Origin: Spirochaetia bacterium
GTDB taxonomy: Bacteria > Spirochaetota > Spirochaetia > SZUA-6 > Bin103
Length of the DNA stretch: 64,000 bases
Direction: 5' to 3'
NCBI GenBank assembly: GCA_965208575.1
Contig: CBDBOV010000004.1
Location: forward strand, 384,001 to 448,000
Shown here: one piece after another, positions 37,083-42,134 of the stretch
How positions within the stretch are numbered: the first letter of the stretch is position 1
How the letters are laid out: each line of letters opens with the position of its first letter
The notes under the pieces: generated by a model
What the model was told of the DNA's origin: nothing
Databases searched by the model: none
What the model saw: the letters and a program-made list of their open reading frames with translations, nothing else
Position numbers and translations under genes: made by a program

Positions 37083-38006
37083 CTACTCTACCACCTTTCG
37101 GCGGGGACCGTAAGGTCCCCTCGGACCCGGCTTCGGCGTCCGGGCGTCGATCAACTCGACCACTTCGCGCGCCGTCCACCGCTGCCGCGCCACGCCGGCC
37201 GCCATCGCCGGCGTGGTGCCCGTGCCCCACTTCTTCTTCAGGCTCATGTGCGGCCGGCAGAAATTGTAGGCCATCGACCACATGGCGAAGCTGTGCACAT
37301 GGTTCTCCAGCTTCTTGGAGAAGGCGTTGGTCAGCCGCGTGAACCGCCGCTGTGACATGCGGATGGTCAGGTTCTGCCGCTCCGCGTAACTCGTGCTGAT
37401 CAGGTCCAGGTTCGGCGCGCCCTGCACGATGATCCGCTCCACCCCGTTGCACTCGCCGGGGCTGTACCGCCGGTGCGCGGCGGTGGCTTCCTCGCCGTCG
37501 CCCTTCGAGGTGCCGTAGTGCTTCACCAGCATGGCATAGTCCACGTCCCCCGCGAATGCCGCGTCCACGGCCTCCAGGTACGCCGAGTGCCCGTCCGTGG
37601 TGAGCTGCACCCGGTTCCGTAGCCGCTGCTCCAGGTCGATCATGAACGGGATCGCCGTCTGCGCCGAGCGATCGCCGACGATCCATGACGCCAGCAGCTT
37701 CGTGTGCGCGCACAGCGCCGTCCACGTCCACACGTCTCCGGCACCCCGCGGCGGGTTCTTCGCCCGCTCCACGTTCTTGTTCTTCGCGTAGATGAACGAC
37801 CAGATTTCGTCGATCTCCAAGCGGGAGCACGGCAGGTTGCGCAGCACCTCGTCCTGGTACTCTGCGCAGATCGGGCCGGCGTCTCTGATGAACTTCCCTA
37901 CCGTGTGCTTCGCGCAGCCGACGATACGCATGGTGGCGGCCATGCTGTTCCCCTCGACCAGGAGCTGGTACATAAGTGCCCTGCGTTCGATAGGTAACTT
38001 GTTCAT
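37083..38006 (-). CDS. IS1-family DDE transposase
   Basis: N-terminal HTH (LVEGNSM), IDEIWSF, LTTDGH, STSYAERQNLTIRM..RRFTRLTNAFSKK, TPAMAAG; TTGCGC-N17-TATATT promoter. Confidence 0.92.
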   Translation of the reverse strand: MNKLPIERRALMYQLLVEGNSMAATMRIVGCAKHTVGKFIRDAGPICAEYQDEVLRNLPCSRLEIDEIWSFIYAKNKNVERAKNPPRGAGDVWTWTALCAHTKLLASWIVGDRSAQTAIPFMIDLEQRLRNRVQLTTDGHSAYLEAVDAAFAGDVDYAMLVKHYGTSKGDGEEATAAHRRYSPGECNGVERIIVQGAPNLDLISTSYAERQNLTIRMSQRRFTRLTNAFSKKLENHVHSFAMWSMAYNFCRPHMSLKKKWGTGTTPAMAAGVARQRWTAREVVELIDARTPKPGPRGPYGPRRKVVE

Positions 38007-38419
38007 CGTGAATGAAATATACTACTTCATATGGTGTTGCGCAAGCGAAATATCAATGTTTCAATGGAAAGGGCCGCCGGGGATGTGGTATCCTCGCCGG
38101 CGGCCCTGCTCGTGAATCATGGGGGTGGATTGGTTCGCCAGCGGGCTCCAAACTCAGCCTAGCCTGACCTTCCTACTTATCCCGTTGATTTGACCGCGGG
38201 ATTCTCTGGTTCATCCAGATAAGTTGTTACCATGAAACAAGATAGGTTCACGGAAGTGGACTCTCCTCTTGAGAGGATCAGTGTATACACTGAATATATC
38301 GAGCGCCGTGCCGGACAGCTTCCTCAATACTACTCGAAGTATCCCCTCTTCGATCCTTCCGACCCACTCATGCCGGTTCTCCTTGACTGTCTCCGTACTA
38401 AGTGTATACACTGATTGCA

Positions 38420-40016
38420 GTGGCCACCCTCCAGAAAAAGGTCTCCCGCGGGCACACCTACTGGCAGATCGTCGAGTCCAGACGCGTCAACGGCAAACCA
38501 CGTCCCATCGTCCTCGAACATCTCGGCAGCGCAGAGAAGTTGCTCCAGCGCCTCCGTGAGGCTCCCACCCGACCGGCAAAGGCGAAGGTCATTCAGTTCG
38601 GTGCGTTGGCCGCGCTCTGGCAGATCGCCCAAGAGTTGGATGTGGTGGGCCTTATCGATACCCAGGTCCCCAAGCGAGACCAAGGACTGTCCTGCGGACA
38701 GTATCTGCTGGTGGCGGCGCTGAACCGTTGTGTGGCCGCCTCCAGCAAGGCTTCTCTGTACCAGTGGTATCGACGCACGGTGTTGAATCGGCTGCTCCCC
38801 GCTGCACAGCGCTCGCTCGCCAGTCAGCGATTCTGGGATCACATGAACATGCTCGACAGCGCTGCCATCGGCGCGATTGAGCAACAACTGGCGCAGCGGG
38901 TGATCGACCACTACCGGATCGATCTGCGACCGCTCATCTTCGATGCGACCAACTTCGATACGTTCATCGACAGTCGCACCGTCAGTGCACTGGCACAACG
39001 TGGCCACGCGAAAAGCAAACGCGCCGATCTGCGGATCCTGGGCTTGGCACTCCTGGTAAGCTGCGACTACCACATTCCGCTGCTCTCACACCCGTATCCG
39101 GGAAATCAGAATGACGCCGCGATGTTCTCGAGCTTGATCGAGACGCTGATCAGCCGCTGCAAGCAGTTGGCCCAGGACTGCGAAGATGTCACGCTGGTGT
39201 TCGATGGCGGCAACACCTCGAGAGCGAATATCGAGGCGCTGCAAGCCGGCCCATACCATTTCGTCACCTCCTTGACCGTGACTAAGCACGAGGATCTGCT
39301 GGCGGTTCCCGCCGGCAGGTTTCACTCCTTCACTGACCCACGGCTGGCCGGGGTGACCGCTTACCGCAGCGACAAGGTGATCTGGGGTGAGCGCCGCACC
39401 GTGGTGGTCACCAACAGTCGCCGGTTGCTGGACGGGCAGCTGGCTGGGATCAAACCAGCGCTTGCAACGCCGGCGCTTGGGCAAACGCATCCTGTGCACC
39501 GACAACGAGTCGTGCAGAGCGCGAATCCGACGGCGTGCCAGTTTTCGATTTCGCACCGATTGGGCAGCGTACCAGCGCTTGCAACGCCGGCGCTTGGGCA
39601 AACGCATCCTGTGCACCGACAACGAGTCGTGGAGCGACCAGGAGATCATCTTGGCCAGCCGCGCTCAACATCACGTGGAGCGGGCGTTCAAGCAGATGAA
39701 GAATCCCCACTGGGTGAGCTTCTCGCCGACCTTCCACTGGACCGATCAGAAGCTGCGCGTACACGTGTTCTATTGTGTGTTGGCACTGCTGCTGAGTTCG
39801 CTGCTGCAACGCAAGGCGGCCGACGGCGGACAACTCCTTACCATCGAGCAACTACTGACGGAACTCAGCGGCGTGACCGAAGTGGTCAACCTCTACGCCG
39901 CGCCTGAGCCGGCCACCAGAGGGCGCTACCGGGCTCAATACGTGCTCTCTGAACGGTCGTCCCTGCAAGACAAACTGTGCCGCCTACTTGACGTATACCG
40001 ACACGCCCATCCCTGA
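38420..40016 (+). pseudogene. IS1634-family transposase, frameshifted
   Basis: YWQIVESRRVNGKPRP, FDATNF, RGHAKSKRADL, VFDGG in one frame; ILCTD, VERAFKQMK, HWTDQKLRVHVFYCVLAL in another. Confidence 0.88.
39454..39631 (+). repeat. 61-bp exact direct repeat (39454-39514 and 39571-39631)
   Basis: ACCAGCGCTTGCAACGCCGGCGCTTGGGCAAACGCATCCTGTGCACCGACAACGAGTCGTG occurs twice. Confidence 0.95.
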
Positions 40017-40179
40017 CAGCACCACGGTCAGTGTATACAAGCCCCGTCCGACAGGATAGCGAGTAACTTGCTATCCTAAAATGACTTATCCACTCAAACT
40101 ACCAGCCACCCGAAATAACTAGGAAACTCACGCTAGCCGGGGTTCGATTCCCCGCACCTCCACTACATCACTGATGCCG

Positions 40180-40392
40180 TTATGGTGTACGCGCGGCGCG
40201 CGCCTTCTGCGCGATCTCCCGGCGCCGCTCCGGGGTCAGGGCGCGTGCCCGCGCGCGTGCCGCCTTCGTCTGTTGGGACGGGCGCGGCGGGTTCAGGATT
40301 TCGTCCTTGTCATTGGGCAGTTCGCCGGTGGCTATACGCCCGATCAAAGTGGCCCTCTCTGCAGGGTCTTTCGGCCTCCGGTGGATGGCCAT
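40180..40392 (-). CDS. Small basic protein of the type often seen beside IS1-like transposases
   Basis: RBS AGGAGG; MAIHRRPKDP...IATGE...ARARALTPERRREIAQKARAAR. Confidence 0.82.
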   Translation of the reverse strand: MAIHRRPKDPAERATLIGRIATGELPNDKDEILNPPRPSQQTKAARARARALTPERRREIAQKARAARTP

Positions 40393-40471
40393 ATCTCTAC
40401 CTCCTGAAATGAATAAAACGCCTGTGCGTTTGTCCTTGCATAGTCTTACCCATTGCGCCACACTAAGTCAA

Positions 40472-40967: not shown

Positions 40968-41102
40968 TATAGTGGGCGGGGGCTGGCGCGCCCAGCAACG
41001 CCCCACCAAGCCATTTTCTTAGCCAAGTTATGGTCCGGCGAGGTATGGCGTGGCCGGTTCGGCATCCGCCAGCCCCCTATTTTTCAAATTGACCCACTAC
41101 CA

Positions 41103-42134
41103 CACGGCCTGTATGGGATGCTCACGGTGGTGCGCGCCTACTACGCCAGCAGCACGGGTCGGGGGCTGGCGCCGCTGGATGAACGGCTGGGGATCGGGCA
41201 CGGGCACACGCCGGCGTGTGAGTACCATGTGGCGCGGTTCGTCGGCGACAATCCCTACCAGAGGAGCCGGGAACATTTTTGTCAGATCTTCCGCCCCGAC
41301 GGCACCGAAGAGATCTCACTGCACAAGATCGAACAGATGGTCGATGGGCTTGGGGTGCGGCTGGAGCACGAACGTCAGGAGGAGATCACGGCTCAGTTCG
41401 AGGACGGCAAGCGCATAGCGGTCGCCGATGAGATCACCGGCACGATGGTGGTGTGCATCGATGCAGGGAAGGCGCCAACGAAGGGCAACGAACGTATAGA
41501 TGACGACAAGAGAAAGAGATACGACCGTGAGTTCCGAGACGTCAAGGTGGCGAGCGTGTCGGCGTTGGAGTGGGATGAGGTAAATCAGGAGGCACGCTGC
41601 AGCGACAGTTCCTACGTGCTGGGCATCGAGCATGCCGATCAGTTTTTTCAGCGTATCTGGGTGGAGATGAACCGGCGCAGCCGCGATCTGAGCTCGCTAC
41701 GTTTGGTGTTCATCGGCGACGGGGCTGACTGGATCTGGCGCCGTGTGGGAGACCTGGACCACGAGCGCAGTCGCCACATCCTGGACTTCTGTCACGCCGC
41801 CGATCACCTCGCGGATGTGTGCAAGATCGTCGACGGAGAGGGCAGTGATCGCTTCTATGAACGCTTCCAACGCTGGCGCGGCATCCTCCGCGAGGGCGGG
41901 GCCTCCGAGCTGATCGTCGAGCTGAAGCAGTTGCGCGACACCGCCGACAGCGGCAAGGCGCGCGATTACGTCGTCGCGGCCCGCATGAAGCAGAGCGGCA
42001 TGACCTGGACCCTGGCGGGAGCACAGCACATGCTTCAGATCCGTGCATCTCTCATGAGCTCGCGGTTTGCACGCGACTTCCAGCACTCACTTCCAGCACG
42101 TCCCGAGATTGAGGAGCTGCCGGCTGCCGCCTGA
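41103..42134 (+). pseudogene. ISKra4-family transposase, 3' part (5' stub at 36897-36950), internally deleted
   Basis: RAYY, PLDERLG, VCIDAG, IGDGADWIW, ILDFCHAADHL, RMKQSGMTW; the usual IGSGxxES segment is absent. Confidence 0.85.

Follow-up and report, generated by a model that had tools for sequence, protein, structure and literature searches.

A mini tRNA-like gene with alanine identity elements, interrupted by an insertion sequence, and its relatives on mobile DNA

Introduction

The described systems closest to the gene treated here, a mini transfer RNA (tRNA)-like gene found in two pieces in a 64,000-nucleotide stretch of a Spirochaetia genome (contig CBDBOV010000004.1, positions 384,001 to 448,000; the whole stretch is called the window), are transfer-messenger RNA (tmRNA) and the allo-tRNAs. 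A minihelix with the G3:U70 pair and A73 suffices for alanyl-tRNA synthetase (AlaRS); tmRNA, whose acceptor stem is the same, is charged as well and binds EF-Tu. The gene of the window represents a conserved, structured and strand-specific family of RNA genes with the full AlaRS determinant set, located on mobile DNA.

Allo-tRNAs, as set out in PMC5389517, are irregular bacterial tRNAs whose identity elements are at odds with their anticodons; some of them have G3:U70 and insert alanine in E. coli. They have many different anticodons, GUC, GCG and UAU being common and the ochre one present, and their genes lie close to those of transposons and toxin-antitoxin systems, and also on phages and in tandem arrays (PMC5389517). 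Mukai et al. found the majority of allo-tRNA-UAU species to be without activity in translation and suggested a connection with transposons or toxin-antitoxin systems (PMC5389517). That source also describes the charging of Bacillus cereus tRNA-Other with lysine by a LysRS1:LysRS2 complex.

The comparison involves three copies of the mini-tRNA: that of the window, one from another genus of the same family (genome G018) and one from the same genus as the window (G001). Its likeness to the tRNA-like domain of tmRNA comprises the acceptor stem and T-loop, a stemless D region with GG, and a long helix in place of the tRNA anticodon arm. Unlike tmRNA, the mini-tRNA has only 68 nt, lacks an mRNA-like domain, a tag reading frame and pseudoknots, caps its helix with an anticodon-like 7-nt loop and, in the window, has a D region (GGUUCGCC) that departs from the GGUUUCGAC/GGAC frame of tmRNA. 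With tRNA-Other of Bacillus cereus, which has a CCA anticodon, it shares the character of a small, tRNA-like RNA working outside normal Trp decoding; tRNA-Other differs in having no G3:U70 and in not being reported on mobile elements. The mascRNA/MEN-beta tRNA-like RNAs (RF01684) and the D-arm-lacking mitochondrial tRNAs are similarly compact cloverleaves with a reduced D arm, but they are eukaryotic nuclear or mitochondrial and the likeness is in shape only. As in bacterial tRNA-Trp, CCA stands in a 7-nt loop with U33 and a purine at position 37 in the window, G018 and G001 copies; unlike it, the RNA scores below the general tRNA models (28.4 bits vs 29 for G018) and has A73, G8 and no D stem.

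Set against the allo-tRNAs as that source presents them, the window RNA likewise pairs G3:U70 and A73 with a CCA anticodon, its family likewise has transposase neighbours, and the G001 copy, alone of the three, has the 8/4 split of acceptor and T stems together with a 6-bp D stem. The long variable arm, a stated allo-tRNA feature, is however absent; the window and G018 copies are 7/5 rather than 8/4 or 9/3, have no D stem and are some 20 nt shorter, and the linkage of the mini-tRNA is specifically to IS1/IS1595 transposases (compared with PMC5389517). On the defining tests of each class, the mini-tRNA falls outside tRNA-Trp, tmRNA and allo-tRNA.

An insertion sequence divides the gene

The initial annotation had joined two pieces, 38121-38162 and 40137-40162, into a 68-nt cloverleaf and had named the result a split mini-tRNA. 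The sequence of the joined product was confirmed, and the locus is laid out as follows.

38121-38158, plus strand: mini tRNA-like gene, 5' part (5' strands of acceptor and helix with the tmRNA-like D region between them, then the CUCCAAA loop and the first bases of the helix 3' strand)
38159-38162, plus strand: CTAG, target-site duplication copy 1, originally the variable region of the RNA gene
38163-40132, plus strand: IS1634-family insertion sequence (IS), defective copy (NCBIfam NF033559, 154.8 bits)
40133-40136, plus strand: CTAG, target-site duplication copy 2
40137-40162, plus strand: mini tRNA-like gene, 3' part (T-arm CGGGG-UUCGAUU-CCCCG, acceptor 3' strand CACCUCC, discriminator A and CUA trailer)

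To the left of 38159 the sequence is unique in the genome and, over 38117-38155, 95% identical to G018. The sequence from 38159 onward and the 37 nt preceding 40137 each recur at 10 further genome sites with 97-100% identity. Among the nine other full-length IS copies, CTAG stands on both sides of eight and TTAG on both sides of one (C6:1250917); an interrupted tenth copy has CTAG on both sides as well. The TTAG on both sides of a single copy identifies the tetranucleotide as a 4-bp target duplication and, since it derives from the target, the join of 38121-38162 to 40137-40162 reproduces exactly the site before insertion. Contigs from what is probably the source run span both junctions at about 39x, as against about 383x for the IS body; the empty site was bridged by no contig in this read analysis, which is silent on the absence of an intact allele.

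The split is therefore the work of an IS1634-family insertion and no property of the RNA itself. The insertion inactivates the gene and leaves the window genome without a working copy: the window copy is an insertion-inactivated pseudogene within a decaying transposon. The IS copy is defective in turn. With both CTAGs it measures 1978 bp vs 2082 bp in normal copies, its DDE transposase frame is broken (38402-39907 and 39387-40016), it contains a 64-nt direct duplication (39454-39517 and 39571-39634, 117 nt apart), and where it has 67 nt, contigs from three DNA runs have 170.

Two other accounts of the junctions were rejected. A tmRNA gene broken by the IS is ruled out by the 68 nt of non-IS sequence between the acceptor strands and by the full tmRNA elsewhere in the genome. 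The 15-nt similarity AAACTCA(GC/CG)CTAGCC is no long target duplication or att core, its right-hand copy being the IS terminus present in all copies.

The genome contains about 10 copies of the IS1634-family element, which has a YTAG target, a 4-bp duplication and imperfect terminal repeats of about 22 bp. IS1634 elements typically produce long, variable duplications, and one of 4 bp is therefore unusual for the family. Marine and sponge metagenome runs and one metatranscriptome contain contigs with near-identical copies. The target left of the insertion (AAACTCAGC+CTAG, 38150-38162) is similar to the right end of the IS (AAACTCACG+CTAG, 40124-40136), and GC precedes CTAG in three of the ten copies with the left end displayed; the element may have a target preference for end-like sequence.

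Structure of the rejoined RNA

The 68-mer, made by script from the coordinates of the two pieces, has a cloverleaf as its minimum-free-energy fold (-29.4 kcal/mol); mononucleotide shuffles averaged -23.5 +/- 3.1 kcal/mol, and 17 of 500 were equally stable. The molecule contains G3:U70, A73, a G at position 8, a UGG-UUCG-CCA D hairpin, the T-arm and the CUA trailer, with a 7/5 acceptor/T split and a variable region of 4-6 nt. In their D region, the window and G018 copies have a hairpin of 2-4 bp or none. The proposal that the ends resemble the tRNA-like domain of tmRNA was borne out: the acceptor stem GGGGGUG/CACCUCC, A73 and the T-loop UUCGAUU are identical to those of the host's own tmRNA, and the 3' end shows a 23-nt near-identity with the tmRNA 3' end. 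The body is unlike both the host tRNA-Trp and the interior of the host tmRNA. Among the 60 tRNA genes of the genome is a normal tRNA-Trp(CCA), and a normal tmRNA lies elsewhere (133 bits), so that the mini-tRNA is an extra; only about seven of the 60 encode CCA, which makes the CUA trailer unremarkable.

Gene finders respond poorly to this RNA. In the 64-kb window ARAGORN found no tRNA or tmRNA and Rfam nothing at gathering score; with relaxed thresholds only the 18-nt T-arm (40137-40154) matches RF00023 tmRNA, at model positions 346-363 (15.4 bits, E 0.0015, gathering score 47). ARAGORN on the rejoined sequence, a check suggested earlier, returns 0 genes in standard mode, and at the 80% threshold the result is ambiguous, with two spurious neighbouring calls. 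The metazoan mitochondrial mode does call Trp(CCA), but this mode is promiscuous and calls a 'Cys' within every IS copy. Standard annotation misses mini-tRNAs even when intact, so that the family is probably under-counted.

An extended -10 had been read just upstream of the gene; this reading found no support. A sigma-70 scan of 37950-38250 gave 0 sites, and the hexamer is not conserved in G018. The proposed element lies in the loop of an inverted repeat, at which no promoter or terminator was called:

38070-38107, no strand: hairpin with 14-nt arms (93% complementary), 13 nt upstream of the RNA gene

A hairpin stands at the equivalent position in G018 (L030 1455-1490).

Uninterrupted homologues

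A BLAST search with the 5' piece against 60 related genomes gave a single significant match, in G018 (95% over 39 nt, E 6e-11). The RNA of that genome is unbroken, 67 nt long, and has the acceptor, D region and CUCCAAA loop of the window copy; its T-loop is UUCAACU, with the T-loop rules still observed, and its acceptor/T split is 7/5. Homologues of two window genes adjoin it:

37083-38006, minus strand: IS1-like transposase gene, 307 aa, divergent from the mini-tRNA gene (NF033558 53.5 bits, cut-off 100; Pfam DDE_Tnp_IS1 23.7 bits)
40180-40461, minus strand: open reading frame (ORF) of 93 aa, convergent with the RNA gene (homologues beside the RNA in G001, 68%, and in G018, 51-56%)

Across the order, homologues of the 93-aa ORF occur in the window's family only (16 of 23 genomes; 0 of 68 in other families). 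Its best match, in G001, has a third copy of the RNA beside it, 73 nt long. This copy was found through the neighbouring protein, and its RNA features, the loop included, were therefore not selected for. The G001 copy keeps the G3:U70, the A73 and the entire seven-base loop of the window copy, while acceptor pairs 6-7 are A-U/U-A in place of U-A/G-C, a compensated change, and the anticodon stem (CCGUA/UACGG) differs in every pair with pairing perfect. The D region is here a 6-bp hairpin with a UGG loop and the acceptor/T split is 8/4. In both genomes the cloverleaf forms on the plus strand only, the minus strands being no better than shuffles. The initial annotation was thus right about the AlaRS determinants and the CCA loop of a real, conserved tRNA-like gene, and the uninterrupted copies near IS1-like transposases that it had suggested looking for exist in both genomes. 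G018 has in addition a second, decayed copy of which only the 3' part remains, beside a small ORF with an internal stop.

A wider family

Two scans extended the comparison. The first used a motif pattern of anticodon loop, T-arm and 3' acceptor on one genome per species (185,579 species), with the loop (CTCCAAA) and the 3' acceptor strand fixed and the 5' strand free. It returned 27 loci: nine ordinary tmRNA 3' ends, four unclear cases and 14 compact or tRNA-like members, of which two are identical to the G001 and G018 copies, 11 are compact and one is a full-size tRNA. The compact ones come from Acidobacteriota, Planctomycetota, Chloroflexota, Latescibacterota, Gemmatimonadota, Acidimicrobiia and others. 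Position 3, on the free strand, is G in 14 of 14.

Pairing was assessed on an alignment of nine compact members from eight lineages (A5). Its core pairs form in 92.2% of cells vs 80.0% in shuffled alignments (0 of 500 as high) and 52-67% in slid ones, and double-sided changes occupy 22 cells vs 8.7 expected. G3:U70 is present in nine of nine, the search pattern having fixed its 3' side only. The covariance model R2 was built from these nine members and is specific: within the window's family (24 genomes) it matches only G018 (74.6 bits) and G001 (53 bits), in a search that scored 150 of some 400-1200 first-look candidates in 23 of the 24 genomes and all 106 in G016. A single-sequence model, R1, was discarded because it did not separate the family from ordinary tRNA-Ala and tRNA-Trp (about 34 bits).

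In the second scan the loop was free and both acceptor strands and the short body were fixed. More than 118 metagenome stretches matched, with 80 loci and 77 unique sequences of 60-70 nt among the matches listed, and so did 40 viral contigs. The CCA anticodon is not the hallmark of the family that it had seemed to be from the window: when the loop is not forced, CUCCAAA is found in only two of the 77 unique metagenome members among the matches listed. Loops of the family include CUA (amber), UUA (ochre), GUC, GCG, UGC, UAU and CAU. Further members (for instance L167, L181, L207, L211 and L212) have a plain tetraloop in a tmRNA-type GGUUUCGAC...GGAC frame and amount to a bare tRNA-like domain; a marine phage-like lineage is among those with tetraloops.

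The R2 alignment of 82 matches defines a common plan: a 7-bp acceptor, a single-stranded D region with a conserved GGU, one helix mostly of 7-10 pairs, a short linker, a 5-bp T-arm and A73. The acceptor consensus is GGGGGYG/CRCCUCC with G3:U70, and members measure 60-73 nt. Two or three of them stand in tandem on several contigs.

That the insertion and the gene family are both real we regard as highly probable. The family is large and apparently undescribed: in the open literature, supplements and subscription papers aside, no description was found of bacterial tRNA-like RNAs with alanine identity and no D stem, or of tmRNA genes consisting of the tRNA-like domain only, and a prior description is possible.

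Some further loci deserve separate mention. One-strand tandem arrays combine the compact Ala-type RNA with other odd tRNAs having CUU and CCA anticodons (L182 491-559, 1693-1764 and 2164-2233; L201 305-452; L175 10332-10652), and recall the polycistrons reported in PMC5389517. The full-size tRNA of the first scan (L109 2534-2605, from an Acidimicrobiales metagenome-assembled genome, MAG) has a normal D arm, G3:U70, A73, a CCA anticodon and an encoded CCA end, and lies 140 nt from an IS1595 transposase; it is a candidate Trp-codon reader with alanine identity in canonical form. A 73-nt tRNA (L142; G096 C186:19576-19648) has the UAA anticodon for the Leu codon UUA, a short variable arm, A73 and G3-C70, and is irregular for a tRNA-Leu. 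On the minus strand of L080 (1501-1574, genome G010), a 74-nt sequence between ABC-transporter and secreted-protein genes combines a G3:U70 acceptor and a T-arm with a D hairpin of 5 bp and loop UGGU, but shows no clear anticodon arm; it scores 45 bits with R1, has no R2 match at E 0.001 and was left unclassified.

What the intact RNA may do

The transcript of an intact gene would be trimmed by RNase P and a 3' nuclease and would receive CCA, and AlaRS would charge it with alanine through G3:U70 and A73. The long helix of the CCA subfamily would then present CUCCAAA as an anticodon loop, and the alanyl-RNA, brought by EF-Tu, would read UGG and cause a low level of alanine insertion. The long helix has about the length of stacked D and anticodon stems, which makes an L-shape of normal size plausible. 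The loop of the window's subfamily keeps a textbook frame unchanged above a covarying stem; the loop sequence therefore appears to matter, which favours an alanine-charged, UGG-reading adaptor. The outcome would be a missense recoder borne by a mobile element, analogous to the allo-tRNAs. From these features we consider charging of the intact RNA with alanine probable and its decoding activity a tentative proposal; the statement as a whole, an alanine-charged adaptor able to read UGG, is plausible, if a little short of probable. More doubtful is a general proposal, by which IS1-superfamily transposons and phages across many phyla would carry 60-73-nt alanine-accepting RNAs resembling the tmRNA domain, with freely varying loops, amber and ochre ones included, to recode translation, with alanine at UGG in the window's case and stop codons read through in others, or to hijack ribosome rescue; the window gene would be one of these, later disabled by another IS.

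Several results weigh against an alanine-charged decoding adaptor. The 7-nt CUCCAAA loop with its bulged A, proposed from the window alone, is present and kept in the homologues, but in the window allele it is 5.8 kcal/mol less stable than the minimum-energy register, in which the middle arm has an 8-nt loop. The nearest Rfam model of the G001 copy is tRNA-Sec (42.7 bits vs gathering 47), in an alignment that holds 2 nt where the model has 18 for the variable arm, and the G018 copy too stays below gathering with both mascRNA RF01684 (39.5 vs 42.5) and tRNA RF00005 (28.4 vs 29). The R2 search of the window's family scored only a part of the first-look candidates in 23 of the 24 genomes. The CCA-loop members of other phyla come mostly from the pattern requiring CTCCAAA, so that their loop conservation is by construction, and so is G3:U70 in the second scan, where both acceptor strands were fixed; the pair also occurs in tandem copies found by the covariance model outside pattern selection (L175:10585, L201:383). 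Of the 77 metagenome members, 17 have a 7-nt loop at minimum energy, 11 of these with U33 and a purine at 37, and many have tetraloops. Minimum-energy folding closes extra pairs within anticodon loops, and these counts, like those of a first classifier, are weak either way; still, so many tetraloops with no anticodon suggest that the shared function may not need decoding. The transposases beside amber and ochre members have no in-frame stops, hence no visible need for suppression in cis. Beyond the probable source sample, sequencing runs match the IS family only, X5, X6 and X23 (RNA) included, and are uninformative on expression.

The main alternative, favoured by the many tetraloop members, is a mimic of the tmRNA domain that does not decode. 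The RNA would be alanylated, or bound by SmpB, EF-Tu or AlaRS, or both, or would act as a decoy for tRNA-targeting toxins or defence nucleases, the loop being read by proteins; mobile elements would by such means tap or blunt ribosome rescue or tRNA-directed defence. The architecture is that of the tmRNA tRNA-like domain, down to the acceptor and T-loop identity with the host tmRNA, and the many members without an anticodon keep the tmRNA frame. The inactivity in translation of most allo-tRNA-UAU species and the transposon or toxin-antitoxin link suggested for them point the same way (PMC5389517). Against such a mimic, the loop of the window subfamily is a textbook anticodon loop (C32, U33, A37, A38), constant over a covarying stem; amber, ochre, GUC, GCG and UGC loops recur; and the window D region lacks the tmRNA frame. 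Nor do the gene neighbours supply a partner, clustering of the ORFs around 134 loci having revealed no SmpB-like, synthetase-like or toxin protein, and PADLOC no match among the neighbour proteins tested. We consider a mimic of this kind possible but rather unlikely.

Were members of the family charged and used, they would be natural, mobile missense or nonsense adaptors on a minimal scaffold. This would bear on the natural bending of the genetic code, on the manipulation of host translation or ribosome rescue by transposons and phages, and on the origin of tmRNA, of which they would show the tRNA-like domain still with an anticodon hairpin. An AlaRS-charged adaptor of 65-70 nt would also be a useful chassis for code engineering. 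The window alone is a modest finding; the interest lies in the family that it revealed.

Mobile linkage and the remaining alternatives

The neighbour survey covered 2155 ORFs within 2 kb of the RNA at 134 loci, mostly on short contigs. Only two kinds of neighbour recur widely, IS1595-type transposases (13 loci; PF12762, PF12760) and IS1-like transposases of the window type (nine loci), which places a transposase beside the RNA in 22 of the 134. Their geometry differs. The RNA lies on the 5' side of the IS1-like transposase gene at nine of nine loci, as in the window, and is on the 3' side of the IS1595 transposase at nine loci and on the 5' side at four, usually at a distance of 40-400 nt. IS1-like matches occur in eight of the 80 metagenome contigs; in seven (L164, L173, L178, L187, L191, L206, L217) a protein that shares 36-44% identity over 234-288 aa with the window or G018 transposase stands beside the mini-tRNA, and in the eighth (L204) there is a fragment of 37-42 aa (57-59%). 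Other members are surrounded by phage genes or by housekeeping genes (L9, FtsY, YbaB-RecR, GroES).

This linkage also invites a reading mainly at the level of DNA, in which the gene would be a preferred target or landing pad for IS1-superfamily transposases, integrases and other IS, its RNA function being secondary or lost. The presence of IS1595 on either side of the RNA agrees with it, as do the inverted repeats of the IS in L109, which exclude the tRNA, and the copy numbers: of four genomes searched, three have several divergent IS1595 copies (4-6 matches per genome) and G093 has one, while R2 gives a single copy of the RNA in each of the five genomes searched with it. The window copy was itself struck by another IS, many viral-contig matches lie close to contig ends, and one member has a tyrosine recombinase beside it. 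Compensatory changes, on the other hand, keep the RNA structure, and the plus strand alone folds well. No Pfam integrase domain was found in the 10 nearest large ORFs tested from the 40 viral loci; several members in housekeeping surroundings have no mobile gene within 3 kb; and the geometry with IS1-like transposases is fixed, the G001 RNA lying inside candidate terminal repeats. A mainly DNA-level role is thus improbable.

A decaying relic, that is, a degenerate tRNA-Trp pseudogene or a tmRNA or att-site fragment with no function of its own, is very improbable. It would suit the window copy, which is IS-broken, has no transposase-side repeat and has an irregular middle helix, as well as the decayed second copy of G018 and the rejection by standard tRNA finders, but acceptor strands, T-arm and loop are kept in distant lineages with compensatory changes, the body resembles neither host tRNA-Trp nor the tmRNA interior, and the cloverleaf is complete, unlike 3'-fragment att sites. 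An ordinary extra tRNA-Trp isoacceptor charged by TrpRS, to which the CCA anticodon in its canonical frame and the mitochondrial-mode Trp call would point, is scarcely credible given that A73 replaces the G of the host tRNA-Trp (G73 being the bacterial TrpRS determinant), G3:U70 is present, the D stem and U8 are missing, and that mode is promiscuous.

Two narrower ideas on the linkage were also rejected. The RNA is no generic cargo of IS1595, in view of the copy numbers and of the L109 repeats given above, and it is not a suppressor needed to read the adjoining transposase, as no in-frame stop was found in seven of seven IS1-like transposase frames beside CUA, UUA or other members.

In an Acidobacteria MAG (L112 2340-3988) the mini-tRNA stands between ORFs matching the C-terminal and N-terminal halves of Cas6, beside the tyrosine recombinase mentioned above, and may mark an insertion that split cas6. 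Directly downstream of amber-type and related mini-tRNAs (L289, L299, L305, L308, L275, L297, L174, L160) lies a small conserved operon, whose three products are about 224 aa (phrog_6361, of unknown function), about 105 aa and 115-160 aa long, the last a weak helix-turn-helix (HTH) protein; at the 5-7 loci of this operon no Pfam or PADLOC name was obtained beyond the weak HTH.

The local IS1-like unit

The IS1-like transposase of the window is 80% identical to its G001 counterpart and 55% to that of G018. The window and G001 share DNA homology only over about 37101-38080 and 40139-40351, that is, in the transposase, the RNA and most of the small ORF, with unrelated flanks. As homology ends at the block edges, the two genomes carry a block of about 1.3 kb at different locations. 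In G001 the transposase, RNA and ORF lie between the arms of a perfect 12-nt inverted repeat, 1522 bp in all, with about 0.006 such cases expected by chance, and the window has a possible counterpart:

41083-41094, no strand: candidate distal terminal repeat of the IS1-like unit (low confidence; one mismatch to the G001 12-nt repeat)

From this comparison of sequences, we take the RNA of the window's clade to be carried by, or in close linkage with, an IS1-like transposon that has the small ORF as well, and the window unit to be eroded at one end and later struck by the IS1634 element. Two points tell against the cargo reading: no target duplication is visible at the G001 repeat, and the window and G018 have one end repeat each, the window lacking that on the transposase side and the G018 12-mer, with one change, overlapping the transposase stop codon. 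A comparison of L217 with L178 for element ends gave homology up to the contig end.

The 93-aa ORF has no Pfam, NCBIfam or PADLOC match. In L217 and L178 the space between the RNA and the IS1-like transposase is taken up by a P63C-domain protein of a phage family (phrog_2384, 392 bits), whose first 28 residues at the N-terminus have a motif in common with the C-terminal end of the small ORFs of the window (E 4e-5, vs the L217 protein) and G018 (E 9e-8). The window genome contains a second IS1-like transposase, 46% identical to the first (L074; G000 C6:1391791-1394181), with a gene resembling a DNA methyltransferase by eye and a distant homologue of the small ORF at the place that the mini-tRNA has in the window unit. 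Just past the IS1-like unit of the window, in IS-rich surroundings, an ORF of 338 aa (41118-42134, plus strand) is transposase-like by eye.

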